The notes below the pieces were generated by a model. That model had not been told where the DNA came from. It ran no database searches and saw only the letters and a program-made list of their open reading frames with translations. A stretch of 64,000 nucleotides of DNA from Deltaproteobacteria bacterium (GTDB taxonomy: Bacteria; Myxococcota; B64-G9). The DNA is taken from the NCBI GenBank assembly GCA_030622135.1, contig JAUXGL010000001.1, positions 601 through 64,600 of the forward strand, given 5' to 3'. The stretch's first letter is position 1. Each line of letters opens with the position of its first letter. Shown here piece by piece: positions 3,401-18,130 of this stretch. The position numbers were made by a program, and so were the translations under genes.

Positions 3401-3544
3401 AACCTTGGCCGGAGAGGGATTGGTGGTCAATATCAGTTCGGCCCCTTCGCCCGGTTTGCAACCTCCGTCCGAGCCGCTGCATCCGGCTGAAAGCAGGGCC
3501 AGCGGCGCGGCCAGTGCCAGGTAAATGGCAAACATTCTTTTCAT
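440..3544 (-). CDS. Giant surface lipoprotein: tandem bacterial Ig-like (Big) domains plus C-terminal thrombospondin-type-3-like Ca-binding Asp-rich repeats
   Basis: 1034 aa; N-term MKRMFAIYLALAAPLALLSAGC (lipobox). Repeated ~90-aa Thr/Ala-rich Ig-like units (TATITAAV..., TANPEAITANG...). DxDxDG-like motifs (DKDDDGQRDPDE, DDNQNGQLDPTEP). AAGGAG RBS 8 nt upstream. Confidence 0.8.
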   Translation of the reverse strand: MKRMFAIYLALAAPLALLSAGCSGSDGGCKPGEGAELILTTNPSPAKVLANGKAAVKVSARGQDENCDPLPNGTLIELSITDGVGYFSNDETTIGLASSPYGVSDEVRSTETGTATISAFCEKYNLHAVSVEIEFFASQCDIVVSADPAVISADGTSTSKIAATLTAVDGGSVPDNTSVTFSTTAGTFVGGGNTHVATSVGSVATAQLQSEDLAQGVTATITAAVTCGGENHQSETTVEFSPSQCAIALTANPEAITANGLSTSTITATLTADDGGTMPDSTDVTFTTSAGTFEESGSDACQVNPTNSVAVATLISADLEVNVTANIEATFLCNDGENYASDVDVRFTKLDRPTIDLAASPTEVLADDVSASNLTAEVYLTGGTRAGAGELVNFSTDLGRFQESGTNAYQAVTNDNGMATATFIGGTSHGKASIQAQVDIGGQSGYGGTEINVRALGTLRFVSADPIKLGVRGSGRDDTSTITFELLDVKDQPFPAGAEVVFTLSFAPGVSLDPWTDHTDDQGQVTTTLIAGNQATTVTVNAAATVGTVEKDADSPSIAIVGAKPNAEYLTFACEKFNIGGLILDFVETGCTISLADRYSNKIGFTTNVHFRTEAGNITGEAPTSESQGDMGMATVTIRTGNPRPKNVAPMAGEPFIGDGNPRDGLLTIIAATSGEEQFTDQNGNGEFDYTDTNQNGVMDPSEADFTDYTCNQAGHDALVTVTSEPTGANCTAGGFLLQSGVDTDDSGVLELGEVLKSEYVCHFQDGLDRFDAIVNVTDEPTGNNCATGGKKIDAGVDDNQNGQLDPTEPSEPFVDLGEPFIDKDDDGQRDPDEQYMDANNSNDYDGPNGIWDGDTLIWTQTKMVWTGHLSWGGSCIGGGETHSILCPETFDIPYEGSQLFWYAAKDHNLNPLNQTCQISASVNGKGKVTDAMPSLPWKVVDSLGTTMELRKVRNRRTQLPCTDTDNICYVIPVVNGFQNGWQGGFWLENTAADTDGAESGSVTLKIDYRESPNAGANLSESTTVRGTFNGGGG

Positions 3545-3701
3545 GGCGATACTCCTTGCATGAAGAAACCGCTAAAAGATGGTCGATGGTCAATGCTAGA
3601 TACTCCTATACAAAGGGATTTTATGTCAACCTGCCAGTTGAATAATTGGTTCCGGCTCGTCCGGGTCAGGAAGAACCATGATGTGGAGACGAGGTCCTGG
3701 C

Positions 3702-6110
3702 TTATTCGAACGTTCCGCTCACCGTTATGGTCTGAGTCTTGTGGACGCCGCCGCCGGGGGTTTGGTTGTAGGTGATGTCGAGCGTGATCGTTCCCGTCTC
3801 CGATGGGGTGGTGTCGGTGAGCGGGGCGCCCTTGACCGTAAACCAGCCGCAGAAACCGCCTCCGCAGTCTTCCCAGTAGCGCGTTGGGTTTACGAAGCCC
3901 CCCAGGGTGTCCGGGGCCTGCCAGGGTAGCGGCGGATCGGATACGTCCGCGGATCCCTTGCCGTCCACGGAGAAGTCGATCTGGAGTGTGGAGTTGAGGG
4001 GATTCAGGTTGGCGTCCTTGATCTCCCAGTAGAAATTCATTTCATCCCCCCGGGGGATGAGGAAGGTTTCCGGGCAGAGGGTGTTGTAGTGGTTCTGGGT
4101 GAGGCAATCTCCGGGACCGGCGAGCGCGGCGGCCTCGGTCGTCCAGAGGATGTAGGCGACGTTCCAGATGAGAGTGTCGCTGTCCCAGACTCCGTTGGGC
4201 CCGTCGTACAGCCGGTTGTCATTGGCGTCGCAGAACGGCTCGTCGGGGTCGCGCATGCCGTTGTCGTTCTCGTCGACGTAGGGCTCGCTCAGGTCGACGT
4301 AGGGCTCGCCGAGGTCGTAGTCGCCGCTGTCGTTGACGTCGTCGAACTCTTCCTCGCCGGTGGTCGCTACGAGGATCGTTACGATGCCGTCGCGGGGATT
4401 GTGGTTGTCGATGCAAGGCTCGCTCGGAAGGGGAGGAACGTCCTTCGGCCGGGGGTCGCCGGTTTGGACGCACACCGTTGCAATTCCCATATCGCTGGCG
4501 CCCTCCGAGGTTATGGCGCTGGCACCGATGGAACCCGCTTCGGTCCGGAAGATCACGTTGGTCGCGAAGCCGATCTTGTTGGAGTAGCGGTCGGCCAAGC
4601 CGATGATGCACTGGGTTTCCACGAGGTCGAGGACGAACCCGCCGACGTTGAAACGCTTGCAGAAAAAGGTCATATACTTGGCGTTGGGCTTGGCTCCCAC
4701 CACCGCGATGGGCGGGGAGACCGCTTGTAGCGTCTCGGTGCCCACGTGAGCGCTGGCGGTCACCGTCACCGTCGTGGCCGCCCGGCCCGAGTTCAGAGTG
4801 GCCGCCACCATGCCGTCGTTGTCCGTGCAGTCGTTGGGCGAGTCCAGGGTGACGCCCGGGGCATCGGACAGGGTGAACTCCACCGGCGCGCCGGAGGAGA
4901 AGGGCAGGCCCTCGGTGTCCTTGACCAGGAATGTGACCAGGCTGGATTCGTTCTTTCCCGACCCCTTGGCGCCCAGCTTATCCGGTACCGCGGAGATGAA
5001 TTCGATGCAGCCGAGTTGTCTCACGCTGATGTCGATTTTGTCGGAGGCGGCCATATTCTGGATGAGGATGGAGGCCTGCACCGGGGCGACGCCTGCCCGG
5101 TCGCCTCCGATGAAGGTGGCGCTAGCCGTTCCGCTGTCGTTGGTGTAGGCGACGTAGATGGGCCCGGCGGACTCCTGGAACCATCCCAGCTTGGTTGAGA
5201 AGGTCACCTTCTTTCCCGCTTCGGCCCGGGCATCTCCCGGTAGGAAGACCTCGGCGGTCAGGTCCACGGTGGACACGTTGTCGGCCGGCACCTCGTTGGA
5301 GGACGCCCGCAGGTACACCGCCGGCGCGTTCGATTCGCCCAGGGTGACGATCACCTGCTCGGAGTATAGCTTGGTGTCGTTGCAGGTGAAGGCGGCGGTG
5401 ACGGTCGCCCGGACGGTTTCCTGGATATCCTCGCTCCGCAGCGTGGCGGTGACCGTGCTGTTGTCGACCGTCGTGTCGTAGTTCTGTCCGCCGCTCTCGG
5501 TGAACTCGCCCCGGGTCGTTTTGAAGCTCACCGGGGTTTTGTCGAGCACGGATCCGCCGGTATCGGCGGTGAGCGTGGCGGTGATCACCGAGACGGAAGC
5601 GCCGTCGGCGGGGATGAGCGCGGGTTCGGCCAAGAGCTCGATCGCGCACTGGCCCGGCCGGCCGGGCTCGATGAACTCGATGTCGACGGGGGAGGCGGTC
5701 AGGTTGTGGGTTTGGCTGAAGGCGGACACCTTGGCCGTGCCGACCACGGTGCCGCGCACGTTCGTGCTCGCGCCGGAGTCACTACTGGTGTTGACGACTA
5801 TGGTGGTGCCGTCGTGGGAGAAGTAGCCGACCCCGGCCGGATCGTCAGAGGAATTGGCCGGATCCTGGTCGGTGATGCGGAACTCGATGGGGGTTCCGTT
5901 GGCGAAAGGCTTGCAGTTTTCGTCCCGTCCCAGGGCCACTATCTTGATGACGTCATTTCCGTTGGCCTGGGCTTCACCCGTGGCCGGGTTGGTGGTCAGC
6001 GTCAGCTCGGCTCCTTCGCCGGCCTTGCAGTCGCTGTCGCCGATGTTGCAGCCGGCGGAGAGCAGGGCAAAAAGAAACAACGCAAGGCATATCCAAGATA
6101 CCCTTTTCAT
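3702..6110 (-). CDS. Paralogous giant Big-domain surface lipoprotein with Ca-binding Asp-rich repeats
   Basis: ORF-track ORF 3702..6140; preferred start is ATG at 6110 (MKRVSWICLALFLFALLSAGC lipobox) with AAGGAG RBS. Same architecture and many identical motifs as 440..3544 (GEGAELTLTTNP, IAVVGAKPNA.Y.TF.C..FN.GG..LD.VET.C.I.LADRYSNKIGF.TNV.FRTEAG). Confidence 0.8.
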   Translation of the reverse strand: MKRVSWICLALFLFALLSAGCNIGDSDCKAGEGAELTLTTNPATGEAQANGNDVIKIVALGRDENCKPFANGTPIEFRITDQDPANSSDDPAGVGYFSHDGTTIVVNTSSDSGASTNVRGTVVGTAKVSAFSQTHNLTASPVDIEFIEPGRPGQCAIELLAEPALIPADGASVSVITATLTADTGGSVLDKTPVSFKTTRGEFTESGGQNYDTTVDNSTVTATLRSEDIQETVRATVTAAFTCNDTKLYSEQVIVTLGESNAPAVYLRASSNEVPADNVSTVDLTAEVFLPGDARAEAGKKVTFSTKLGWFQESAGPIYVAYTNDSGTASATFIGGDRAGVAPVQASILIQNMAASDKIDISVRQLGCIEFISAVPDKLGAKGSGKNESSLVTFLVKDTEGLPFSSGAPVEFTLSDAPGVTLDSPNDCTDNDGMVAATLNSGRAATTVTVTASAHVGTETLQAVSPPIAVVGAKPNAKYMTFFCKRFNVGGFVLDLVETQCIIGLADRYSNKIGFATNVIFRTEAGSIGASAITSEGASDMGIATVCVQTGDPRPKDVPPLPSEPCIDNHNPRDGIVTILVATTGEEEFDDVNDSGDYDLGEPYVDLSEPYVDENDNGMRDPDEPFCDANDNRLYDGPNGVWDSDTLIWNVAYILWTTEAAALAGPGDCLTQNHYNTLCPETFLIPRGDEMNFYWEIKDANLNPLNSTLQIDFSVDGKGSADVSDPPLPWQAPDTLGGFVNPTRYWEDCGGGFCGWFTVKGAPLTDTTPSETGTITLDITYNQTPGGGVHKTQTITVSGTFE

Positions 6111-6273
6111 GGTGATACTCCTTGCGTGAAGAAACCGCACGCAACGCTAAATACTCCTACGGAAAGGCGTTTTCTGTCAAGGATCCTGGATTCATGGATC
6201 TCCCAGGGAATCTTGCACAACTTTTCAAGGTGTGTGATAGTGATGCCCGTTATCTCTCGAAAGGGAGGCAAAC

Positions 6274-7011
6274 ATGGCAAATAGCCTGGTCCTGGCGCTT
6301 TGTGCCCAGACCTCCAGCGATAGCTTCATGATAGGGCTGATCAAGTGGATCAACCCGATTTTAGAACCCGTGGTGGTAGTGGTCCTGGTCCTGCTCTTAG
6401 TCATGTCGGCGGCCTGCTGGGGCATCATTTACTACAAGTGGCGGACTCTGCGGCACGCCCAGGAGCAGTCCATCGAGTTTCTGGAGACTTTCTGGAGCTC
6501 CAAGCGGCTGGACGCCATCTACAGCGCATCGGAACAGCTGCAAAAGAGCCCCATCAGCCTGGTATTCCGGGCCGGCTACGTTGAGCTGGGCAAGCTGAAG
6601 AAGACCCAGGCGGAGGGCGAGCTCGGCGGGGCCATGTACGATGCCATGGGCGGCATCGAGAACGTCCAGCGATCCCTGCGCCGGGCCAGCCTCTCCGAGT
6701 TGACCACCATGGAGGGCCTGGTGCCGTTTCTGGCCACCACCGGCTCCTCGGCCCCCTTCATCGGCCTGTTCGGGACCGTGGTGGGCATCATGAAGGCCTT
6801 CGTGGAGATCCGGCCGGGAACCGCCACGCTGGAGGCGGTGGGCCCGGGCATCTCCCACGCCCTGATCGCCACCGCCGTGGGGCTGTTCGCGGCCATCCCC
6901 GCGGTGATGGCTTACAACTACTTCATCCGCAGGATCAAGGTGCTCTACAGCGAGATGGACGTCTTTTCCTCGGACTTCCTCAATATCGTCAAAAGGCACT
7001 TCCTCAAGTAG
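6274..7011 (+). CDS. MotA/TolQ/ExbB family proton-channel protein
   Basis: 245 aa; three TM segments; signature GLVPFLATTGSSAPFIGLFGTVVGIMKAF typical of TolQ/ExbB. Confidence 0.85.
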   Translation: MANSLVLALCAQTSSDSFMIGLIKWINPILEPVVVVVLVLLLVMSAACWGIIYYKWRTLRHAQEQSIEFLETFWSSKRLDAIYSASEQLQKSPISLVFRAGYVELGKLKKTQAEGELGGAMYDAMGGIENVQRSLRRASLSELTTMEGLVPFLATTGSSAPFIGLFGTVVGIMKAFVEIRPGTATLEAVGPGISHALIATAVGLFAAIPAVMAYNYFIRRIKVLYSEMDVFSSDFLNIVKRHFLK

Positions 7012-8463: not shown

Positions 8464-9033
8464 GTGAAAGAGAGCGTGGTGAATCCCCGATCTCCGTATT
8501 TACGGCTTGACGGTTTCTCCAAGGATGCGTGGGAGCTCGACGCGGAGTCCTTCGCCGCACGGTATGGGAGTGCCTTTCTACTGCACTACGGGTCTTTAGG
8601 GAAAGACAAGGAGATCGAAGATGTCGATCTGGGAGATACGCTGGTGCGGGAGTACACCGACGAGGTCGTGGAACCCCGAACCGATCCCCGGACGAACTTC
8701 CTGGTGTTCCCGGTCCGTTATAAAGCCAAAGGCAGGTTTGACCAGGCCATCTGGGTTGGCCGGGGTCGCCAGAATGACATCATCATCCCGGACGCATCCA
8801 TCTCGACCATGCACGCCTTCATCCGCAAAAACGATGCTGGCAATTTCCACCTGCAGGACATGATGTCGAAGAACGGATCCTTTGTTTACGACCAGCGGGT
8901 TCCAGCGCTGGGGACCGGTGAACCGTTGCCGTTTGGGACGGGCGACCGGATCCGCTTCGGGACGGTGAAGCTGACATTTCTGGGCGTGGCCGAGTTCATC
9001 AGCCTGGTCAACCAGCTGCTCGATGGAGGCTAG
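8464..9033 (+). CDS. FHA-domain protein
   Basis: GTG start at 8464 with G-rich RBS; C-terminal FHA motifs (WVGRGRQNDIIIPDASISTMHAFIRKN...SKNGSFVYDQRV). Confidence 0.7.
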   Translation: MKESVVNPRSPYLRLDGFSKDAWELDAESFAARYGSAFLLHYGSLGKDKEIEDVDLGDTLVREYTDEVVEPRTDPRTNFLVFPVRYKAKGRFDQAIWVGRGRQNDIIIPDASISTMHAFIRKNDAGNFHLQDMMSKNGSFVYDQRVPALGTGEPLPFGTGDRIRFGTVKLTFLGVAEFISLVNQLLDGG

Positions 9034-10181
9034 CGCCGCTTATCTTTTTTCTGGTAGAACCGGGTCAGTATGATGCCGGCGAAGAAGCCGCCGATGTGGG
9101 CACTGAGTGCGACTCCGGAGCAGGTGCCCACCGAGCCGACCACCAGGAAGGCCAGCAACTGCCAGCCGATCCAGACGCCCAGGTACAGCCAGGTGGGAAC
9201 GTGCAAGACCGTCTGGATAACGAAAGTGGGGATGGTGGCGGAGGGGTACCGGACCAAAAATGCGCCCATGATTCCGGAGATGGCTCCGCTGGCGCCGACC
9301 GCGGGGATCTCCCCGCCCAGGTTGAACAGGAAGAAGATCAGGCCGGCTGTCAATCCCAGAAGCAGGTAGGTGCCCAAGAACTTCCAGCGCCCGAAGGCGT
9401 CCTCGATGGCGCGGGCGAATATCCACAAGAAGAACATGTTTCCCAGAAGATGCAGGGCGCCGCCGTGGATAAACATGTGGGTAAAAAAGGTGTAGATCCC
9501 CTGGCCTTCGGCGATCCGCGCGGGCGTCAAGCCGAAGCGCTCGAAGGTGGCTTGGGGAGTGTCGGGGCCGGCGATCTGATAGACGTAGATCAATATATTG
9601 ACGAGTACCAGAATGACGGACACCAGGGGGAATCGCCGTATGCCCACGCTGGTTCCGAGCGGCAGGATGATCTTGGGCAGAAAGAGCGAGCCGAGCATGA
9701 CCCGCTGGCTCGATTGGCGGCCCAGGGTGGCCAGGTCCTTTAGCGACTCGCGTTTCTTAACCGTCTGGGCGATGGCTTCCCCCAGCTTTTGCATGCGCTG
9801 CGATTCCCCGGGGTCGTGCAGATATCGAACCAGCGCGGAAAGCTCGCCCCCGTCGGCCCACTGGCCCCGGCACTGGGGGCAGCGGTCCAGCTCGATGTTG
9901 GAGACTCTCCCGAAGATTTCCGCAAGCATGGTTTTTTGGCACCGGGGGCACACGATCTCGCGGTGGGGGGTCGGCTGGGTGGGTGCCCCGGCCTGGGGAT
10001 CCAGCCGGGTCACCGACTGCGGCTGGGCCATGGCCTCGCGCATGACGTCGTCCAGCTCGCTGCGGTCGAACCAGATCCCGCCGCATTTTGGGCAAACGTC
10101 CACCTCGATCCCCTGGAAGGCGACCCTATCCAGGTTGGTTCCGTCCACCGGGCAAATTAGCTGGCCGATCGTGTCTGCCAT
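9030..10181 (-). CDS. Rhomboid-family intramembrane serine protease with N-terminal Zn-ribbon domains
   Basis: 383 aa; two CxxC...CxxC Zn-ribbon units (CPVDG...CPKCGGIWFD; CPRCQ...CPQCRGQWAD); C-terminal 6-TM rhomboid core with GASGAISGIMGA (GxSG) and SAHIGGF (catalytic His). Confidence 0.8.
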   Translation of the reverse strand: MADTIGQLICPVDGTNLDRVAFQGIEVDVCPKCGGIWFDRSELDDVMREAMAQPQSVTRLDPQAGAPTQPTPHREIVCPRCQKTMLAEIFGRVSNIELDRCPQCRGQWADGGELSALVRYLHDPGESQRMQKLGEAIAQTVKKRESLKDLATLGRQSSQRVMLGSLFLPKIILPLGTSVGIRRFPLVSVILVLVNILIYVYQIAGPDTPQATFERFGLTPARIAEGQGIYTFFTHMFIHGGALHLLGNMFFLWIFARAIEDAFGRWKFLGTYLLLGLTAGLIFFLFNLGGEIPAVGASGAISGIMGAFLVRYPSATIPTFVIQTVLHVPTWLYLGVWIGWQLLAFLVVGSVGTCSGVALSAHIGGFFAGIILTRFYQKKDKRR

Positions 10182-10218
10182 CGTGGTCGGGAAGAATACC
10201 AGATATTCCCCGAGGCGG

Positions 10219-10890
10219 CTACTTGAGCTCGACGCCGGTGCGCCTTCGTTCGCGGCGGCCCTCGTAGCCGGCCTTGCGCCAGTCGCGGGGTTCGCGGATC
10301 TCGTCCATGAGGTGGAGCCGGCCCTGGGCCTTCAGCCGGTCGTAGATGCGCAGCCAGGCGCAGGGGATCTCCGGGTCGATCTCGCAGTGGCCGTCCCGGG
10401 CGCCGCCGCAGGGGCCGTTCTGCAGGCTCTTGGCGCACAGAGTGATGGGGCAGATGCTCGCGGTGACGGTCAGCATGCAGTCGCCGCAGCCCTTGCACTT
10501 CTCGCGCCAGACGCCCGGCTCGTCGGCGCCGCCCATGAAGGTGGTGGAGAGCGCCGGGATGACCGGCAGGGGGTCGAAGACGTCGGCGACCATCTGGACG
10601 CCGACACCGCAGGCCAGCGACAGGATTGCGTCGGTGCCCTCGGGGATTTCCAGGTACTCTTTGAGTAGATCGTTTTCGCATTGGCGCTCGATGGTCAAAA
10701 CGATGAACCCGGGGGGTGGGCCTTCGAAATGCATGGGGTGGGAAAGGTCCCGAGCCAGGTCGTGAGCCTCGGCGTCGCCGCCGGCCCGGCAGACGGTAAC
10801 GCAGCCGCCGCAGCCCAGGACCAGCACCTGCCGGAATCCCTCGATGGAGGCGGCGATTTCCGCGATCGGTTTGAGATCGCCGACGATCAT
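10219..10890 (-). CDS. MetV-like (MTHFR C-terminal-domain-like) Cys-rich Fe-S/Zn protein
   Basis: Preferred start ATG 10890 (GGGAGG RBS 6 nt upstream) overlapping the upstream stop as ATGA. Cys clusters LGCGGCVTVC and CKGCGDC...LQNGPCGG...GHCEID...CAW match my memory of the MTHFR_C/MetV family signature; assignment from memory only. Confidence 0.5.
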   Translation of the reverse strand: MIVGDLKPIAEIAASIEGFRQVLVLGCGGCVTVCRAGGDAEAHDLARDLSHPMHFEGPPPGFIVLTIERQCENDLLKEYLEIPEGTDAILSLACGVGVQMVADVFDPLPVIPALSTTFMGGADEPGVWREKCKGCGDCMLTVTASICPITLCAKSLQNGPCGGARDGHCEIDPEIPCAWLRIYDRLKAQGRLHLMDEIREPRDWRKAGYEGRRERRRTGVELK

Positions 10891-11252
10891 GGCGTTTGCC
10901 TCCCGGCCTGGTGGCGCGCCCGGTGGCGTGGGCACAGAGGCTCGGCCAGGTCGACGAGCTTTTCATCCAGGGCTCCGGGCAGGCCATCGGTGAAAACCGG
11001 CTGGCCGCAGACCCGGCAGCGGATCAGCTTGAGGGTGACCACCTCGTCCCAGCGGTTTTCCAGCAGGTGCTGAAACTCCACGGCGCCCTGGGGGCAGATT
11101 CTCCAGCAGGTCAGGCAGCGTGCGCAGCGAGCCATGTTGTGAAGCAGCGCGCGGCTTTCTCCCTCGTCGCGGAAATCCAGTGCCCGGGCGGGGCAGTTCT
11201 GCACGCAGGCCAGGCAGCCGTTGCACTTTTCGTTGACCTGGAAGTAGCTCAT
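10887..11252 (-). CDS. 4Fe-4S ferredoxin-domain protein
   Basis: ORF-track ORF 10887..11546 starts with low-complexity junk; preferred start ATG 11252 (MSYFQVNEKCNGCLACVQNCP...CARCLTCWRICP = two CxxCxxCxxxCP motifs). Start overlaps IclR stop (ATGA). Confidence 0.6.
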   Translation of the reverse strand: MSYFQVNEKCNGCLACVQNCPARALDFRDEGESRALLHNMARCARCLTCWRICPQGAVEFQHLLENRWDEVVTLKLIRCRVCGQPVFTDGLPGALDEKLVDLAEPLCPRHRARHQAGRQTP

Positions 11253-12016
11253 GTCTTTCGCTCCAGCATGCTCCGGCCGATGGCGCCGGCCGTGCGTTTG
11301 GTCTCTTTCGCAATCCGCCGCATGTGCTCGGTGCTCATGCTGGGAGTGAATCCAACCACCCAGATGGCCGAGATCCGGCTGCCCCCGTTGGCAATCGGAG
11401 CGGCGACCGCGCGGACGCCCGAGATGTATTCCTCGTCGTCTAGGGCATAACCTTCGAGGCGCGCCCGTTCGACTTCCTGTAGAAACCGGGTTGCGTTCGT
11501 GATGGTGTTGGCGGTGAACCGGCGAAGTTTCTTGGCGCGGATCCACCGGCCGGCTTGGTCCGCGGGAAGCGAAGCCAAAAACACCTTGCCGATGGCGCCG
11601 GCGAGCAGCGGGATCCTCGTGCCGACCGGAGCGGTGATCTTCAGATCCTTGGTGGACTCGACTATGTCGAGAATGGTGACGGTGTTGCCGGAGCGGGTAC
11701 CCAGAAAGACCGACTCCTGGGTTTCTCTCATCAGCTCCTGTATGAAGGGACGGGCCAAGTCCTTCAGATCGATCTGGGCTTCGACTGCGCGTCCCAACTC
11801 GAAGAGGGTCGGTCCCAGCGAGTACCGCTTGGTTCCTTCGTCGCGAGAGACGGCACCCACGTCATCGAGAGCCGAGACGATCCCGAAGACAGTGCTCTTG
11901 CCGATGGGAAGCTGCCGGGCCAGGTCGCTTACCGTCATGCCCGCGTCGCTCTTAGACAACAACTTGAGTATCGAAAAGGCCTTCTTGACTATGGGGGCTT
12001 TATATTTGGTGCCCAT
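11249..12016 (-). CDS. IclR-family transcriptional regulator
   Basis: Preferred start ATG 12016 (MGTKYKAPIVKKAFSILKLL...): N-terminal wHTH (MTVSDLARQLPIGKSTVFGIV) and C-terminal IclR effector domain (GVRAVAAPI). ORF-track extension to 12451 looks like non-coding read-through. Confidence 0.85.
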   Translation of the reverse strand: MGTKYKAPIVKKAFSILKLLSKSDAGMTVSDLARQLPIGKSTVFGIVSALDDVGAVSRDEGTKRYSLGPTLFELGRAVEAQIDLKDLARPFIQELMRETQESVFLGTRSGNTVTILDIVESTKDLKITAPVGTRIPLLAGAIGKVFLASLPADQAGRWIRAKKLRRFTANTITNATRFLQEVERARLEGYALDDEEYISGVRAVAAPIANGGSRISAIWVVGFTPSMSTEHMRRIAKETKRTAGAIGRSMLERKT

Positions 12017-12128
12017 TGTTCGGTATAGTGAACAAACTCCCTCCCGGTAACATATCCCAACTGGCCCATTTGTCAACATTATTATTGACATAAGGGTGTC
12101 GGGTGCTATGCTCCCGGGTGTTAGTTGT

Positions 12129-12140
12129 TCACTATAGTGA
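12129..12140. promoter_or_regulatory. Perfect 12-bp palindrome TCACTATAGTGA in the divergent IclR / AOR-operon intergenic region; related half-site TATAGTGAACAA at 12024-12035
   Basis: Read directly: ttgtTCACTATAGTGAcc at 12125-12142 and, inverted, ggTATAGTGAACAAac at 12022-12037. Candidate operator for the adjacent IclR regulator. Confidence 0.45.
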
Positions 12141-12172
12141 CCCAATGATCCTAATGACCCAAGGAGCAGGGC

Positions 12173-12433
12173 ATGCCCGTAGACGACAAGAAGCAGTCGA
12201 CCGCCGAGGATCTGCGCAAGACCCGAACGTACGGAAAGTTCCGCTGTCACAATCCCAGTTGCATGGGGCGGCTCCAACCCGAGGCTTTGCAGCAGCAGGT
12301 CAAGTGCCCCGAGTGCGGGATGGAGTTTCGGGTCCACTGGATCCGTCCGGACTTCCCCCGCATCCGCGGTCCGGTCTGGGAGGTCAACCGGAAGCTGGCC
12401 GATGAGGCTTTTTTGAAACTGGAGGAGAAGTAA
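12173..12433 (+). CDS. Small Zn-ribbon protein (CxxC...CxxC), hypothetical
   Basis: 86 aa; CHNPSC...CPEC; ends 1 nt before the AOR start, so probably cotranscribed. Confidence 0.5.
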   Translation: MPVDDKKQSTAEDLRKTRTYGKFRCHNPSCMGRLQPEALQQQVKCPECGMEFRVHWIRPDFPRIRGPVWEVNRKLADEAFLKLEEK

Positions 12434-12434
12434 A

Positions 12435-14375
12435 ATGGCACTCAATCGCAAGATCGCCTATATCGACCTGACTAGCGGCAAGATCGAGATAAAGTCTATT
12501 CCCCTGGAGGTTCGGAGGAAGTTCATCGGCGGCCGGGGTCTGGACGCCTACCTGCTTTACAACCATGCCAAAAAAGGCTGCGATCCCCTGGGGCCGGACA
12601 ACCCGCTGATCATCTCCGGCGGGATTCTGACCGCCACGCTGGCGTCGGCCACCGCGCGCACGCACATCATGGCCAAGTCGCCCCTGACCGGGCTTCTGGG
12701 CTCGTCCAACATGGGCGGCTTCTTCGCGCCCGAGCTGGCCTGGGCCGGCTTCCACCACCTGGTCATTCGGGGCCAGGCCGAAAAGCCGGTATACCTGTTT
12801 GTACACGACGGCGAGATCGAGATCCGCGACGCCCAGGATCTGTGGGGCCAGACCACCACCGAGACCCAGTGGTCCATCCGCGAGGAGCTCGCGGACGAGG
12901 AGGTCAAGAGCCTGGTGATCGGCCCGGCGGGGGAGAACCTGGTGCGTTTTGCCAACGTGATGACCGGGATCAAGAACTCCGGCGGGCGCACGGGCATGGG
13001 CTGTGTTCTGGGTTCTAAGAACCTCAAGGCGGTGGCCGTCCGGGGATCCCAGGACATCCAGATTGCCCACCCGGTGGAGGCCCTGGAGTACAACAAGCGC
13101 TTCATCGACCAGATTACCTCCTCCAAGGTCAACCAGACCCAGGGGGCCCTGGGCACGCCCTTTATCTGGGGGGCCACCAACTCCTGGGGCGGGATCCGCA
13201 CACGCAACTTCCAGTACAATCAGCTCGAGTACGCCGACGACGTGGAGCCCGAGCGCATCGACGAGATCGCCGAGGAGACCATCGGCCCCTACCACATGAC
13301 CGGCTGCTTCGCCTGTCAGGTGCACTGCCGGGCCCAGTACAAGATCCCCTCGGGGCCCTACGCCGGCAAGTACGACGAGGGGCCCGAGTACACCTCCCAG
13401 GGTGCCTTCGCCGGCGAGCCGGATTGCAAGAGCGCCGAGACGGTGCTTACGGGCAACCACCTGGTCAACCAGTACGGCGTGGACAACCTGGAGATCGGCA
13501 GCATCATCTCCTGGGCCATGGAACTGTACGAGCTGGGGATTTTAACCCGGGAGCAGACCGACGGTCTGGACCTGCGCTTCGGAAACGACCAGGCCTTGCT
13601 GGAAATGGTCCACCGCATTTGCACCCGCAAGGGCTGGCTCGGCGACACCCTGGCCGACGGGGGCGTCCCTGCCTCCGAGAAGATCGGCAAGAACTCCTTC
13701 GACTATCTCATCCAGGTCAAGGGGATGTCCAACCTCCACTCCGACGAGCGGGCCACCCCCGCGCTGGCCTTGAACATCGCCACGTCCTCGCGGGGTTCCG
13801 ACCACCTGCGCAGCCGACCGGCCATCGACCTCTATCACCTGCCCGAGAAGGTTCTGAGAAAAATCTACTCGAGTCCGGTTGCCTATGACGGACCGTTGAG
13901 CTCCGAGCACACCTCTTACCAGGGCAAGGCCTGGCAGGTCTTCTGGCAGGAGAACTGCTACATGGCGGTGGACTGCCTGGGCATCTGCAAGTACCACACG
14001 CTCTTTCTGGGGACGACGCTTCCCAATTTCGAGGACTGGCCCAAGGTCATCTATTACAACACCGGCCTGGAGTTTACCCCCCGGGAGATCTGGGATGTGG
14101 CCGAGCGCGGCAACATGATCGAGCGCCTGTTCAACCTGCGCGAGGGGCTCACCCGCGACGATCTGAAAAAGGGCGACACGCTCAACCACCGCTACTTCGA
14201 CGAGCCCTGCCGGCGCGGCGCTCCCGACGTGGTGGGCCGGAAGATCGACCGGGACAAGTTCACGAAAATGATCGACGAGTTCTACCAACACAAGGGGCTG
14301 GATCCTAAGGGCGATCCCAAGCCGGAGACGCTTTTGCGCCTGGGCCTCGAGAACGAACCGTCCCATCTGGTGTGA
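12435..14375 (+). CDS. aor: Aldehyde:ferredoxin oxidoreductase (tungsten/molybdopterin AOR family)
   Basis: 646 aa; N-term MALNRKIAYIDLTSGKIEIKSIPLEVRRKFIGGRGLDAYLLYNH is the classic AFOR_N start; Cys ligands for the 4Fe-4S cluster (CFACQVHC); C-terminal AFOR_C-like region. Confidence 0.9.
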   Translation: MALNRKIAYIDLTSGKIEIKSIPLEVRRKFIGGRGLDAYLLYNHAKKGCDPLGPDNPLIISGGILTATLASATARTHIMAKSPLTGLLGSSNMGGFFAPELAWAGFHHLVIRGQAEKPVYLFVHDGEIEIRDAQDLWGQTTTETQWSIREELADEEVKSLVIGPAGENLVRFANVMTGIKNSGGRTGMGCVLGSKNLKAVAVRGSQDIQIAHPVEALEYNKRFIDQITSSKVNQTQGALGTPFIWGATNSWGGIRTRNFQYNQLEYADDVEPERIDEIAEETIGPYHMTGCFACQVHCRAQYKIPSGPYAGKYDEGPEYTSQGAFAGEPDCKSAETVLTGNHLVNQYGVDNLEIGSIISWAMELYELGILTREQTDGLDLRFGNDQALLEMVHRICTRKGWLGDTLADGGVPASEKIGKNSFDYLIQVKGMSNLHSDERATPALALNIATSSRGSDHLRSRPAIDLYHLPEKVLRKIYSSPVAYDGPLSSEHTSYQGKAWQVFWQENCYMAVDCLGICKYHTLFLGTTLPNFEDWPKVIYYNTGLEFTPREIWDVAERGNMIERLFNLREGLTRDDLKKGDTLNHRYFDEPCRRGAPDVVGRKIDRDKFTKMIDEFYQHKGLDPKGDPKPETLLRLGLENEPSHLV

Positions 14376-14386
14376 GGAGACACGTC

Positions 14387-14884
14387 ATGGCACAAAAGAT
14401 CCTGAAGATCGAGCACGAAAAATGCACCGGCTGCCGGCTCTGCGAGCTGGTATGTGCCGTGTGGCACCACCACGTCTCCAATCCCGCCCGGAGCCGGATC
14501 CGCATCGTCAAGTGGGAGTCCGAGGGAGTCTACGTTCCCATGGCCTGCCAGCAGTGCGAGGACGCCCCCTGCGCGGCCGCCTGTCCGGCCAAGGCGCTTT
14601 CACGCAACCAGGAGACGGGCCGCGTGGAGCTGGATTACGACAAGTGTATCGGCTGCCGCACCTGTGTCTCCGTCTGTCCCTTCGGCGCCATGCACTTCGT
14701 CCCCATCGACCGCAAGGTTATAAAATGCGACCTGTGCGACGGCGATCCCCAGTGCGTGCGCTTCTGCGAGGTCAAGGCCATCGAATTCGTCGACGAAGGC
14801 GATCTGGGTCGGCACAAGGGCCGCGAGGCCGCCCGGCGCATCCACTCAGCCGACAAGAAGGCCGCCGAATTGCAATCGGGATGA
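14387..14884 (+). CDS. Poly-ferredoxin-like 4Fe-4S protein (AOR electron-transfer partner)
   Basis: Preferred ATG 14387 (MAQKILKIEHEKCTGCRLCELVC...) with GAGGAG RBS 7 nt upstream; four CxxCxxCxxxCP-type motifs; stop overlaps next gene start (ATGA). Confidence 0.8.
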   Translation: MAQKILKIEHEKCTGCRLCELVCAVWHHHVSNPARSRIRIVKWESEGVYVPMACQQCEDAPCAAACPAKALSRNQETGRVELDYDKCIGCRTCVSVCPFGAMHFVPIDRKVIKCDLCDGDPQCVRFCEVKAIEFVDEGDLGRHKGREAARRIHSADKKAAELQSG

Positions 14885-15168
14885 AGGTCACCGTCGAATT
14901 CTTGAGCTTGCCGAACGTCGCCAAGATGATCGGCGGCAAGTCGGTAGCCCACGATTTCACCGGGGGGACCATCCAGGAGCTCGTCGGGGAAGTAGCCGCG
15001 AAGTACGGCAAGCCGGTCCGCGAGTTCCTCCTGGACGAATCCGGCCGGCTGGACGCCGGCTTCCGCGTGGTCCTGAACAAGCAGGAATGGTTGAACCACG
15101 ACCAGTTGGACCGGGCGGTGCAAGACGGAGATATCGTCACCATCGCCATGCTGGTCGGCGGGGGATGA
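14881..15168 (+). CDS. MoaD/ThiS-family small sulfur-carrier-like protein (C-terminal GG)
   Basis: 95 aa MKVTVEFLSLPN...DGDIVTIAMLVGGG: beta-grasp length, terminal Gly-Gly; translationally coupled to upstream ferredoxin (ATGA). Confidence 0.7.
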   Translation: MKVTVEFLSLPNVAKMIGGKSVAHDFTGGTIQELVGEVAAKYGKPVREFLLDESGRLDAGFRVVLNKQEWLNHDQLDRAVQDGDIVTIAMLVGGG

Positions 15169-15305
15169 GCCCCGACCCTGCATGGATAGCAGACGAAAGC
15201 AACGAGGAAATCGCGTGACACATGGAGAAATTAAAATTGACTTTAAGATGACCGAGGTGTCACTTTAACTCATAATCCATGGTCGGCTTTGGTGGGAATA
15301 TGTAA

Positions 15306-15920
15306 TTGGATGAGGATAAAAGAGGGATTGCCTCCATGTGTAGCAATAAAAACCTTGAGGGGATCGAGGAAGCACTTTCCTTGAACCGGTTGGTCATGGA
15401 ACTCGCGAAGAGAGGCGAGAAATTCTTCCGGCAAACCCACCCCAACGCGTTCTTCCTGGTTGTATCCTGCCCGCGAGACGGTGTACTTCGAAACGATTCC
15501 GGTATCAGGGCGGACTCCGATTTCTTAAGACTCAAGACCGAGCTGACCACAGGCGGTACTCCTCCTCCGGCGGGAAGTCCGGCCGGAGAATGGGCCATCG
15601 AGCTGGTCAAGACGGACCGGAACGTGTACAAGTCCAAGATTACCATTGGCCGGGCGCATAACAACGACATCGTCATCCGTATAAACAAGATATCCAAGCT
15701 GCATAGCGTCTTCAATCAGGAGAGAGACGGCAGTTACTCACTAGTTGACATGGGCTCGGTCAACGGCACCACGGTCAACGACGTAAAACTGGAAAAAAAC
15801 AAACCGGTCGAGATCAAAAACGGGGATATGATCACATTCTGGCGATACCAGTTCCAGTTCGTTGAACCTGAACCTTTCCTACAGCTTCTTCGCGATCTGT
15901 CCAGCAAGACAAGCCAATAA
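15306..15920 (+). CDS. FHA-domain protein in a low-GC islet
   Basis: 204 aa; C-terminal FHA (ITIGRAHNNDIVIRINKISKLHSVFNQERDGSYSLVDMGSVNGTTVN); local GC markedly lower than neighbours; start uncertain (ATG 15306 or downstream ATG). Confidence 0.6.
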   Translation: MDEDKRGIASMCSNKNLEGIEEALSLNRLVMELAKRGEKFFRQTHPNAFFLVVSCPRDGVLRNDSGIRADSDFLRLKTELTTGGTPPPAGSPAGEWAIELVKTDRNVYKSKITIGRAHNNDIVIRINKISKLHSVFNQERDGSYSLVDMGSVNGTTVNDVKLEKNKPVEIKNGDMITFWRYQFQFVEPEPFLQLLRDLSSKTSQ

Positions 15921-16066
15921 CCGCCATTGCATTCGCGGCCTGAGCCAACACGTCGATACAGCTGAGCGTATTATTGCTTTTTCGTGGGCTCGATCGCTCG
16001 TCCGAGAACAGCGTTACGCAACTTATTGTAGGGTGTGGAAAATCCCTATAGGGTCGGTTGTTTATT

Positions 16067-18130
16067 TCATTCTCGTCGTTTCAACATCCGACGACACAAT
16101 CCCAACAGGACGGCCAGGAGACCAGTTGAGAGCGGGTTTGTCGACGCGCTGCCATACAAACCGTTGTGGCACCCGCAGCCGCCACTAATGGCCGCCTCGG
16201 CATCCGCTGCACCGCCTCCGTCCTCGAAGTTTTCGGCGTTCGTGCCGGCGTCAAAGCCCCCATCATATCCGTCGTCGTATCCGCCGTCCGGGCCCGGGCA
16301 GGATTCCCTGGCCACGACCTTGACATTGTCGAAGGACGCGCCGTCGTTTCCCCACACATACAGCGCCACTGTTCCGTTTTGCAGACCATCATCCAGGACA
16401 GCTCCCGAGAATATGTCCGTGCTATCGAGCGTCACGGTATACCGGTTATCGACGACTTCTACGCGTAGCACCATGTCGGCGTTCTGGATATACCCTCCCG
16501 AGACCGCAGCCAGCGTCGTCTCCACACCGTCTGTTATTCTGAAGAGCTTGCGGAAGTTACGCTGTCGGTCGATGTCCACCTTGTAGTAGTTGGCCTCATC
16601 CTGGTACCGAAACAACACTCCCATGCCGTCGTCGTCGGTGGTTTGCATATGGACTGAAAAAACGTAATCGTCCCAGGAAAAGGCGGCCGCATCGCTCCAG
16701 TAGGCGAAGCTTCCCTGGCGATTCTCCGTGGCCGCTGTGTCCGGGCCGCAGATGTTCGAACTCTGCGCCAGCCGGCCGTCTGACCCGTGCCAGTCAGAAG
16801 GTGCCGAGATGGTACCCCGGTCCACCACCGTCCAGCCATCAAAGTCACCATCATCGAAATCATCGATTAAGAGCGCAGGTTCTGACATGAACATTGCCTC
16901 AGTGCCGGGCTCTATTACATTCGGAGGTGAAGCGCGATCGGTGACGTCGTTTACTGTCAGTACGTAGGTAACGCACTCGGTCAGTTGCGACGTGGTCAAG
17001 GATACCGTTCTCGGGTCCATTTCCAGAAAAGCAGCCAAGACCGTCACATCGCCACTGATGTTGTAGTTTGTGACCGTGGTTGAGTTGATTTCTTCCACTG
17101 GTTCGCTGAAGCGAACCTGGACATGGTTGTCGTCGACCACCAAGACCGAATCGATAGTAGGTGGCTGGCGGTCGTCGAAAATACCCAGGTTGTAGTATTC
17201 GAACCGGTGTTGAGGATCGGTGTTGTACTGAGCCAGATAGGGTGAATAGCTACTCGCCTCCAACCGGTCTTCCGCAGGATAAAAACGAATGATTCTCAAG
17301 AAGCTGTTGCCACCGTTAGCAATCATCTGGTAGTTGCACAGCATTTGATAGACAAGATTTCCTTTTACACCGGTATCCACCCGCCGTCCCTGCCCGTCGT
17401 TGAGCACGTGCCCGTTGAACACGAAGGCAGTGTTCGAATGGTTCTTCAAAAACTCTTCCCACATGTCGTCGCCGTTGTTCTCCCTGCCGTAGTCCGTCGG
17501 CACCCAGTTTTGTCCCAATCCGCTTTGGTGATGCAGATCGTCGCTATATACGTGGGTGTGGGTGACAACCATCAACCGGTGCCGGGGGTGATTCCGCGCA
17601 ACCTGGTTGGCCCACTCCAGAACCGTATCCCGCGGCCCGAATTCCAATGCAAAGACCAGCCAGTCGACAGAACCGGCATGGAACCGGTGATAGCAATTGT
17701 CCATTTTACCCGGCTCGAAAACATCTCCGAATGTGGGCAGGTTCTCGAACTTGCTAACCGGGAAGGTTTGGTTGAACTTCGTCGTGTCGTAGGGAGCGGA
17801 ACCCAGTCCGTCGTGGTTGCCCACCGCCAGAACGTAAGGCACGACCCCGTCCAAGAGGTCCAGGCTCGTCTTGGCGTTGGCCCAGCCGGGATCATCGTTG
17901 TCGTTGGTGATGTCGCCTTCGTGCAGGACGAAGGCGATGTTCAAGGAATCCTTATTATCCACAATCCACTGAGTTTGGATGTCAAAAAGCTCCGGCCAGC
18001 CCGCAAGGCCCGGCGTGGTGTACTTCTGGGTGTCCGGGAGCAGGATGATGCTGAACGGTTCCTGGGCCGACGCTTCCTGCGGCGCGAGAAGCCAGAAAAG
18101 CAGAATGACAATTTTCCCTCTTGAGTTCAC
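16067..18130 (-). CDS. Secreted calcineurin-like metallophosphoesterase with C-terminal lectin/hydrolase-like domain and MYXO-CTERM-like sorting tail
   Basis: 687 aa; signal peptide MNSRGKIVILLFWLLAPQEASA; metallophosphoesterase motifs (GDITND, GNHD, VVTHTH, GHV.ND); C-terminus GGCGCHNGLYGSASTNPLSTGLLAVLLGLCRRMLKRRE (Cys motif + hydrophobic helix + basic end). Confidence 0.75.
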   Translation of the reverse strand: MNSRGKIVILLFWLLAPQEASAQEPFSIILLPDTQKYTTPGLAGWPELFDIQTQWIVDNKDSLNIAFVLHEGDITNDNDDPGWANAKTSLDLLDGVVPYVLAVGNHDGLGSAPYDTTKFNQTFPVSKFENLPTFGDVFEPGKMDNCYHRFHAGSVDWLVFALEFGPRDTVLEWANQVARNHPRHRLMVVTHTHVYSDDLHHQSGLGQNWVPTDYGRENNGDDMWEEFLKNHSNTAFVFNGHVLNDGQGRRVDTGVKGNLVYQMLCNYQMIANGGNSFLRIIRFYPAEDRLEASSYSPYLAQYNTDPQHRFEYYNLGIFDDRQPPTIDSVLVVDDNHVQVRFSEPVEEINSTTVTNYNISGDVTVLAAFLEMDPRTVSLTTSQLTECVTYVLTVNDVTDRASPPNVIEPGTEAMFMSEPALLIDDFDDGDFDGWTVVDRGTISAPSDWHGSDGRLAQSSNICGPDTAATENRQGSFAYWSDAAAFSWDDYVFSVHMQTTDDDGMGVLFRYQDEANYYKVDIDRQRNFRKLFRITDGVETTLAAVSGGYIQNADMVLRVEVVDNRYTVTLDSTDIFSGAVLDDGLQNGTVALYVWGNDGASFDNVKVVARESCPGPDGGYDDGYDGGFDAGTNAENFEDGGGAADAEAAISGGCGCHNGLYGSASTNPLSTGLLAVLLGLCRRMLKRRE

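Follow-up and report, generated by a model that had tools for sequence, protein, structure and literature searches.

What controls an aldehyde oxidoreductase (AOR) operon that is transcribed divergently from an IclR-family regulator gene, and what does its enzyme do? This question is raised by a 64,000-nucleotide (nt) stretch of contig JAUXGL010000001.1 from a Deltaproteobacteria bacterium, hereafter the window. All gene coordinates are positions within this stretch, for which a metagenome gene call was available from contig Ga0451374_12503 of the Joint Genome Institute (JGI). Four co-directional plus-strand genes, encoding a Zn-ribbon protein, an AOR/WOR-family large subunit, a polyferredoxin and a MoaD/ThiS-like protein, diverge from the minus-strand IclR gene across a spacer of 156 bp (12017-12172). 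An earlier note on this DNA had named these four genes and a divergent region of that length, and all were found as described. We propose, with a probability of roughly 0.7, that the locus is a divergon controlled by an IclR repressor, in which an AOR/polyferredoxin enzyme with altered chemistry would be produced together with a Zn-ribbon partner.

Two palindromes in the divergent spacer

The spacer contains two copies of one 20-bp palindrome, TTGTTCACTATAGTGAACAA, with two mismatches each. The putative operator O1 (TTGTTCGGTATAGTGAACAA, 12016-12035) has the core GTTCGGTATAGTGAAC at 12018-12033 and abuts the IclR start codon. The putative operator O2 (TTGTTCACTATAGTGACCCA, 12125-12144) has the core GTTCACTATAGTGACC at 12127-12142 and belongs to the 5' leader predicted for the Zn-ribbon/AOR operon, 46 nt ahead of the Zn-ribbon ATG. 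The palindrome has two matches in the window, versus none in any of 100 dinucleotide shuffles. A perfect 12-bp palindrome and a related half-site had been noticed before. Their coordinates are exact (TCACTATAGTGA at 12129-12140 and TATAGTGAACAA at 12024-12035, the only two places of this 12-mer in 64 kb), but the 12-mers cover only part of two full palindrome copies of 16-20 bp.

The two promoters in the spacer are matches of a scan with the sigma-70 consensus only. The predicted promoter of the enzyme operon (12085-12112, plus strand) reads TTGACA-16-TATGCT with a TG extended -10 and matches the consensus at 10 of 12 positions, and that of the IclR operon (12049-12076, minus strand) reads TTGACA-16-TATGTT. 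The two stand back to back with 8 bp between their -35 hexamers. The O2 core begins 14 nt past the plus-strand -10 and the O1 core 15 nt past the minus-strand -10, which corresponds roughly to +8 of the predicted transcripts. Since both sites lie just downstream of predicted -10 elements, their placement is the geometry of a repressor.

Three further features of the spacer were observed. The divergent -35 hexamers make a 21-bp near-palindrome, TTGTCAA-N7-TTGACAT, at 12071-12091, which is probably nothing but the mirror image of the two promoters, although it could be a binding site in itself. A direct repeat, TAGTGACCCAATGA / TAATGACCCAAGGA, with copies 17 nt apart, occupies 12135-12165 of the leader, between O2 and the Shine-Dalgarno sequence of the Zn-ribbon gene, and may be due to chance. 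About 20 nt upstream of the IclR ATG there is a run of GGGAGGGAG.

Conservation of the palindromes across orthologous loci

A scan of one genome per species yielded 80 orthologous loci, labelled with L-numbers, in which the AOR is 81-87% identical to that of the window. The sampled loci come from metagenome-assembled genomes (MAGs) of Desulfobacterota, Acidobacteriota, Aminicenantes, Myxococcota and Fibrobacterota. Half of them (40/80) have an adjacent, divergently oriented IclR homologue of 44-64% identity. The best matches to the window palindrome fall at two positions in nearly every one of these 40 IclR-operon spacers. The core GTTCA-N6-TGAAC, with at most one mismatch, occurs 73 times in their 9.8 kb, as two copies in 33 spacers and one in 7. 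In comparison, 300 dinucleotide shuffles of the same spacers gave 0.34 ± 0.56 core sites with a maximum of 3. The spacers contain 7.5 core sites per kb, compared with 0.15 per kb elsewhere in 749 kb, an enrichment of about 50-fold. The resulting consensus is a perfect palindrome, GTTCA(C/T)(C/T)AT(A/G)ATGAAC. The earlier note had taken lack of conservation upstream of orthologous operons as evidence against its proposal of an autoregulatory and operon-controlling operator pair; the palindromes turned out to be conserved and to behave as such a pair, with IclR as the presumed binder.

The positions of the two sites are also kept. The O1 equivalent abuts the IclR ATG in 39 of the 40 loci, with the consensus CAT-TGTTCACCATAATGAAC, and the O2 equivalent lies 14-190 nt upstream of the Zn-ribbon ATG. 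A -10 element ending 14-17 nt before the O2 core was also found in L019, L022, L023, L028, L065, L066 and L077, and about 25 loci have a promoter-like site ending 8-16 nt ahead of the O1 core. Seven loci carry extra genes before the Zn-ribbon gene (L004, L010, L013, L025, L042, L044 and L058), and there the site pair stands beside IclR at the head of the longer operon, as does a single site in L059. L007 has its site pair at the edge of the contig, and its examined stretch contains no IclR gene. Among loci with at least 3 kb of upstream sequence, 34 have IclR with at least two sites, 12 have IclR with fewer, 8 have neither, and 5 have sites without IclR. Therefore, the comparison gives good support to the palindromes as putative conserved operator sites, and their position points to IclR as the likely binder, which would act by repression. 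We found no prior description of a GTTCA-N6-TGAAC operator, the literature not having been searched systematically for it.

Within the window, the only other core matches with at most one mismatch are at 1496, 10693, 14258 and 29385. The sites at 1496 and 29385 are inside long open reading frames, that at 10693 is in the MetV-like gene and that at 14258 in the AOR gene. They were considered as further regulon members and treated as chance matches.

The IclR protein (gene at 11249-12016, minus strand, ATG at 12016-12014; 255 amino acids) consists of an N-terminal winged helix-turn-helix domain (HTH_IclR, PF09339, 2.7e-9) and a C-terminal effector domain (IclR_C, PF01614, 8e-39). Its nearest NCBIfam models are BhcR, PcaR/PcaU/PobR and KdgR. 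All of these scores are under the cut-offs, and the protein is thus no orthologue of a named regulator.

A Zn-ribbon gene that accompanies the AOR gene

The Zn-ribbon gene (12173-12433, plus strand) encodes 86 amino acids and is preceded by AGGAG at 12162-12166, 6 nt before its ATG. The protein has the Cys pairs C25-x4-C30 and C45-x2-C48 and a conserved tail, PDFPRIRGPVW. Searches of Pfam, NCBIfam and the PDB gave nothing above threshold. Among 612 homologues, an alignment of 41 sequences from several phyla has a mean identity of 79% and 31 invariant columns, including the four Cys residues, an N-terminal LR..RTYG..RC and a C-terminal W..P.FPR.RGPVW. The family is small, with 90 proteins at E ≤ 1e-3 in an exhaustive profile search of 1.84 billion representative proteins.

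The gene lies upstream of AOR in all 76 orthologous loci with enough upstream DNA. Its stop codon is separated from the AOR ATG by 1 nt in 51 loci, and in 16 the two genes overlap by 14 nt. Five distant homologues were looked up (P0152, P0165, P0175, P0189 and P0190), and each is directly followed by an AOR-family gene. Its identity across the orthologous loci is 54-87%, compared with 54-74% for the ferredoxin. We conclude that the Zn-ribbon protein is a putative dedicated partner of this AOR subfamily. We prefer to regard it as a bound subunit, because of the translational coupling and a conservation about equal to that of the ferredoxin subunit, with a role as assembly factor as the alternative. 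The earlier note had listed this gene as a detail. It is present as stated, but no other component of the locus is as distinctive or as little known: this gene marks an uncharacterised AOR subfamily and is the new part. A literature search that combined AOR with a zinc ribbon or with IclR brought up no account of such a module, and a 2025 review and a 2026 classification of tungsten enzymes make no mention of a Zn-ribbon component.

One further protein, P0171 (779 amino acids), contains three Zn-ribbon segments (C-P-x-C ... C-x-x-C-G ... SPDF.I..G) alternating with leucine-rich-repeat-like regions. Its likeness to the family is probably distant and at the level of motifs.

Active-site substitutions in the AOR large subunit

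The AOR/WOR-family large subunit (gene at 12435-14375, plus strand; 646 amino acids) matches AFOR_N (PF02730, 9e-76) and AFOR_C (PF01314, 1e-97), both at full length. Its best relatives in the PDB are 1aor (Pyrococcus furiosus AOR, PfAOR; 2e-87), 9mqx_D (A. mobile WorL) and 8c0z_A (Aromatoleum aromaticum AorB), and its bit scores are 297 to PfAOR, 264 to AorB and 199 to BamB. None of the [4Fe-4S] ligands C291, C294, C298 and C518 varies in 81 orthologues, and they align with C288, C291, C295 and C494 of PfAOR. The pterin-binding motifs G348-x-D350 and D513-x-L-G-I-C518 are also conserved. The metal would presumably be tungsten.

Differences were found in the second shell. The residues Thr243, Glu313, Tyr427 and His448 of PfAOR form the conserved second shell of the aldehyde-oxidising members (PMC12096430, PMC13328260). 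Glu313, Tyr427 and His448 are universally conserved in known AORs, and the Glu is the proposed base (PMC12096430). In HMMER alignments PfAOR, WorL and AorB read E-Y-E and P-A-Y-D, whereas the window AOR reads E-Y-T and L-H-S-D. Thr320 thereby replaces Glu313 and Ser436 replaces Tyr427, and both are invariant in 81/81 orthologues. The AORs encoded behind the distant Zn-ribbon homologues, only 49-65% identical, have the same two residues. The equivalents of Thr243 and His448 are retained as Thr241 and His457. Loss of second-shell residues in BamB and YdhV has been linked to different chemistry, while ASOR, FOR, GOR and GAPOR all retain the Glu (PMC12096430). Since both Glu313 and Tyr427 are lost, the Zn-ribbon-linked subfamily is unlikely to be an ordinary aldehyde oxidoreductase, and it probably acts on another substrate or by another chemistry than in ordinary aldehyde oxidation. 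A literature search on Desulfobacula and Syntrophus found no characterised member.

The identity of 81-87% across MAGs of different phyla (L003-L082, gene mostly at about 5001-6938), with 247 of 646 columns invariant, is unusually high. It points to strong constraint, to horizontal spread in recent times or to the mis-binning of some contigs. The IclR-side operon of four loci contains a second, shorter AOR-like gene (L006, 2210-3763, minus strand; L028, 2006-3667, minus strand; L057; L071) followed by its own polyferredoxin gene. This second protein has 517-553 amino acids and about 35% identity, and lacks the CxxCxxxC motif and the active-site blocks in the alignment. These features suggest an AOR paralogue that has degenerated or diverged very far.

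Other components of the two operons

The polyferredoxin is of the WorS/AorA type (14387-14884, plus strand; 165 amino acids; Fer4_11 and Fer4_7) and has the size of such small subunits, about 150-190 amino acids. Its 16 Cys residues fall into four motifs and predict four [4Fe-4S] clusters. It matches 9mqx_E (9e-37), AorA (8c0z_C, 2e-34) and the WOR5 small subunit (6e-28) in the PDB, and its gene adjoins AOR in 72 of 72 loci. The plus-strand genes had been described as linked by 1-nt gaps or ATGA overlaps. This is right for the Zn-ribbon/AOR junction, a 1-nt gap, and for the polyferredoxin/MoaD-like junction, where the ATGA overlap places the MoaD-like start over the ferredoxin stop. The AOR-polyferredoxin junction is more likely an 11-nt gap. 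The start at ATG 14387 is favoured by GAGGAG at 14375-14380 ahead of it, by the metagenome gene call and by gaps of 10-40 nt in orthologues, and GTG 14372, which would give a GTGA overlap with AOR, was judged less likely.

The MoaD/ThiS-like protein (14881-15168, plus strand; 95 amino acids), a putative beta-grasp sulfur carrier of the WorX/AorD type for cofactor maturation, ends in ...MLVGGG, so the Gly-Gly for adenylation and thiocarboxylation is present. Its PDB matches are ThiS, CysO and MoaD-family proteins at E 1e-4 to 5e-3. A ThiS-like gene lies near AOR in 26 of the 61 loci with enough downstream DNA, mostly in convergent orientation, and is co-directional only in L048, L055 and L074 besides the window. 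MoaD as a fixed member of the operon was therefore rejected. ThiF/MoeB-like genes are nearby in some orthologous loci. The earlier note had likened this gene to the accessory maturation genes beside tungsten AORs and called for a comparison of AOR-MoaD linkage. The class is probably right and the linkage recurs, but the gene is facultative and the linkage is already known biology. It was described in 2006 by Iyer, Burroughs and Aravind (PMC1779556), who reported a MoaD/ThiS-like gene beside AOR and a 4Fe-4S ferredoxin, with no essential difference from the present locus. Such AOR-linked genes are also known as aorD/aorE in A. aromaticum (PMC6365974) and WorX (PMC13328260).

On the opposite strand, the IclR gene does not stand alone. 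The gene of a small 2x[4Fe-4S] ferredoxin (10887-11252, minus strand; 121 amino acids) is ATGA-coupled to the IclR stop codon, and a 4-nt overlap joins it to a gene for a MetV-like protein (10219-10890, minus strand; 223 amino acids). The latter matches PF12225 (DUF5981, methylenetetrahydrofolate reductase C-terminal) at 8e-36. The AOR operon is thus tightly packed and divergent from IclR, as had been noted, but IclR heads an operon of its own and both arms of the divergon carry redox genes. Of 59 orthologous loci, 30 have the ferredoxin/MetV-like pair together with the module. In L004, L010, L013 and L044 the pair shares the strand of the Zn-ribbon-AOR-ferredoxin genes and lies directly upstream of them. 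The L004 operon comprises genes for methylenetetrahydrofolate reductase (MTHFR, MetF-like), ferredoxin, the MetV-like protein, the Zn-ribbon protein, AOR and ferredoxin, and MTHFR ahead of the pair was confirmed only in this locus (2520-4614). A gene with a homocysteine S-methyltransferase domain was observed on the IclR-operon side in L011 (561-1619) and three related loci. These arrangements suggest that the AOR subfamily is linked to methyl/methylene-tetrahydrofolate redox chemistry.

Other loci carry genes of Hdr type. The Zn-ribbon gene of L025 comes after two genes of HdrA-like and one of HdrC-like type, and in L083 the ferredoxin gene is followed by HdrC-like, ThiS and 1148-amino-acid HdrA/GltD-like genes. 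This gene content is a hint that the module is coupled to low-potential electron-transfer modules; the substrate is not fixed by gene context. Directly after the polyferredoxin gene, 18 loci have an EutA-like gene (PF06277) and 15 have a gene for a 470-amino-acid protein with weak radical-SAM-like similarity (examples of genes in this position are L054, 7480-8922, and L008, 3986-5398). Neither is found in the window. Genes for FHA-domain proteins (8464-9033 and 15306-15920, both plus strand) flank the rhomboid/IclR/AOR block of the window and are not conserved beside the module in other loci.

Proposed model and alternative explanations

Based on these observations, we propose the following model. 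Two back-to-back sigma-70 promoters would fire outward, and each transcript would meet a copy of the palindrome from about +8, O1 at the IclR start codon and O2 before the Zn-ribbon ATG. When no small-molecule effector is bound, the IclR protein would occupy both O1 and O2 and block its own operon, with the small ferredoxin and MetV-like genes, as well as the enzyme operon. Binding of the effector would free IclR from the operators. Upon derepression, the Zn-ribbon protein would be translated just ahead of the large subunit and serve as its stoichiometric partner, either as a third subunit or as a dedicated assembly factor. The WorS/AorA-type subunit would bring four [4Fe-4S] clusters, and the optional MoaD/ThiS-like sulfur carrier may serve the synthesis of the pyranopterin dithiolene. 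With Thr replacing Glu313, the proposed general base of classical AORs, and Ser replacing their Tyr427, which positions the substrate, the enzyme would belong to a distinct subfamily.

The same sites could instead be bound by IclR as an activator, in the manner of PobR, PcaU and PcaR. The PcaR/PcaU/PobR subfamily, which contains activators, is among the nearest NCBIfam models, and a divergent, autoregulated arrangement fits an activator and a repressor alike. However, O1 and O2 occupy about +8 to +23, downstream of the predicted -10 elements, and not positions upstream of or over the -35. This placement recurs in many orthologues, and in some of them the centre of the operator is TATAAT-like, so that binding would occlude it. 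We regard activation as quite unlikely. A different proposal is that the palindromes act as hairpins in leader RNAs, affecting translation or stability, or that they bind a regulator other than the neighbouring IclR. Both sites do lie in predicted 5' leaders, with O1 next to the IclR start codon, and for the 5 loci with sites but no IclR gene in the stretch examined another regulator is possible. Against an RNA element, both leader RNAs fold no better than shuffles (z of 0.13 and 0.81), and a search of Rfam over 9000-16500 with E up to 1 gave no match; a riboswitch or leader RNA was rejected on these grounds. In addition, what hardly varies across phyla is the half-site sequence itself, and not mere pairing, and this sequence does not differ between the two strands. 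Half-sites kept as sequence, unremarkable leader folds and an empty Rfam search together argue for protein-DNA recognition. The sites also stay with the IclR gene in loci whose operons are arranged differently, which argues against another regulator. Both forms of this proposal are highly improbable. As for the Zn-ribbon protein, it could have no enzyme partner and be co-transcribed only incidentally, as a small protein that binds nucleic acids or has a regulatory function. Zn-ribbons often bind nucleic acids, and the source annotations read 'DUF1610 RNA-binding Zn-ribbon' (JGI) and 'IBR domain' (NCBI). These annotations are based on sub-threshold similarity: the IBR model scores 17.8 bits against a cut-off of 24.3, the archaeal zinc-finger model HVO_0758 scores 16.4 against 70, and DUF1610 gave no match. 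In the loci examined the gene is found only before AOR genes, including AORs with identities down to 49%; the two genes usually overlap or are 0-1 nt apart, and the Zn-ribbon protein is conserved to about the same degree as the enzyme subunits. Such a role apart from the enzyme is therefore unlikely, and a dedicated partner of the enzyme remains the preferred reading.

Several points weigh against the proposed model. The five loci with sites and no IclR gene in the stretch examined leave room for a regulator other than IclR. The spacing between O1 and O2 varies, with 151-155 bp in 20 loci, 84-85 bp in 8 and 109 bp in the window only. These classes share no common phase, so a looped tetramer with fixed helical phasing is not supported, and no DNA looping between the two sites is claimed. 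There is no canonical Shine-Dalgarno sequence between O1 and the IclR ATG (12016-12042, minus strand), since the operator fills positions -2 to -17, and the IclR start and leader are thus not fully explained. The MoaD-like protein scores under the curated cut-offs of both Pfam (ThiS, 21.7 bits vs 22.5) and NCBIfam (TIGR01687 moaD_arch, 30.4 vs 49.5, E 4e-7, with the whole profile covered). An AlphaFold2 model of the Zn-ribbon protein alone, made with 41 sequences, is poor, with a predicted local distance difference test score (pLDDT) of 61.7 and a predicted template modelling score (pTM) of 0.29, and speaks neither for nor against a subunit role. The Glu and Tyr substitutions were read from a sequence alignment and not from a structure. 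Finally, the regulation, the Zn-ribbon partnership and the chemistry of the enzyme are all predictions from sequence.

Significance

The novelty of the locus lies in the Zn-ribbon gene and in a subfamily with a non-canonical active site. This subfamily can be recognised by sequence, from a Zn-ribbon gene directly upstream and the motifs GPEYTS and LHSDER in the enzyme, and it is strongly conserved in several anaerobe phyla. The Zn-ribbon protein can be tested as a candidate new small subunit or assembly factor. The regulatory part alone would be ordinary biology, although its predicted operators are unusually well supported by comparison. The conserved operator allows prediction of the regulon in hundreds of MAGs, and the effector could reveal the physiological substrate.

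A broader interpretation may be considered, which we find doubtful as a whole. The Zn-ribbon protein would be an obligate third subunit of an unrecognised AOR/WOR class, in which the loss of Glu313, which activates water, and of Tyr427 would entail a chemistry other than hydrolytic aldehyde oxidation. This class would be widespread in anaerobic sediment bacteria of the Desulfobacterota, Acidobacteriota, Aminicenantes and Myxococcota. If this holds, the reaction might be, for example, a coenzyme A (CoA)-dependent interconversion of aldehyde and acyl-CoA, or a reductive reaction fed via Hdr/MetV-type modules. To our knowledge, benzoyl-CoA reductase is the only AOR-family member with non-aldehyde chemistry, and the present class would then be the second.

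Comparison with known systems

Similar to IclR of aceBAK, KdgR, PcaR/PobR, AllR and BhcR, the IclR protein of the window combines HTH_IclR with IclR_C, has divergent genes and a putative palindromic operator, and has a site over its own start region. It differs from all of these in that its scores against every equivalog model are below the cut-offs.

AorABC(DE) of Aromatoleum aromaticum EbN1 (8c0z; PMC6365974) likewise has an AOR large subunit and a four-cluster AorA-type ferredoxin, and its operon includes the MoaD-like aorD/aorE, presumed maturation factors of the tungsten cofactor. In contrast, the window operon has no flavin adenine dinucleotide/nicotinamide adenine dinucleotide (FAD/NAD) subunit AorC, places the large subunit before the ferredoxin, contains the additional Zn-ribbon gene and encodes a large subunit that lacks Glu313 and Tyr427. 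By content, the window operon would count as a Class II WOR, with large and small subunits, in the five-class scheme of PMC13328260. Class II enzymes such as WOR5/ASOR of P. furiosus and GOR of C. bescii also consist of these two subunits with no NAD or bifurcating module, and the ThiS-like WorX is variably present among them, as it is in the orthologous loci of the window. The scheme has no Zn-ribbon component, and the word 'zinc' is absent from the paper. In addition, ASOR, FOR, GOR and GAPOR keep the Glu (PMC12096430), whereas the window subfamily has Thr. The loci with HdrA/HdrC-like genes (L025 and L083) or with MTHFR and the MetV-like pair (L004) would be nearer to a Class IV-like layout.

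BamBC of class II benzoyl-CoA reductase and YdhV are also AOR-family proteins that have lost second-shell residues, do not oxidise aldehydes and have a small Fe-S subunit, and BamB is linked to Hdr-like modules. The window AOR has no Cys at or beside the position aligned with Glu313, the alignment with BamB Cys322 itself not having been checked. Compared with BamB, it is closer to AOR sensu stricto and keeps the equivalents of Thr243 and His448.

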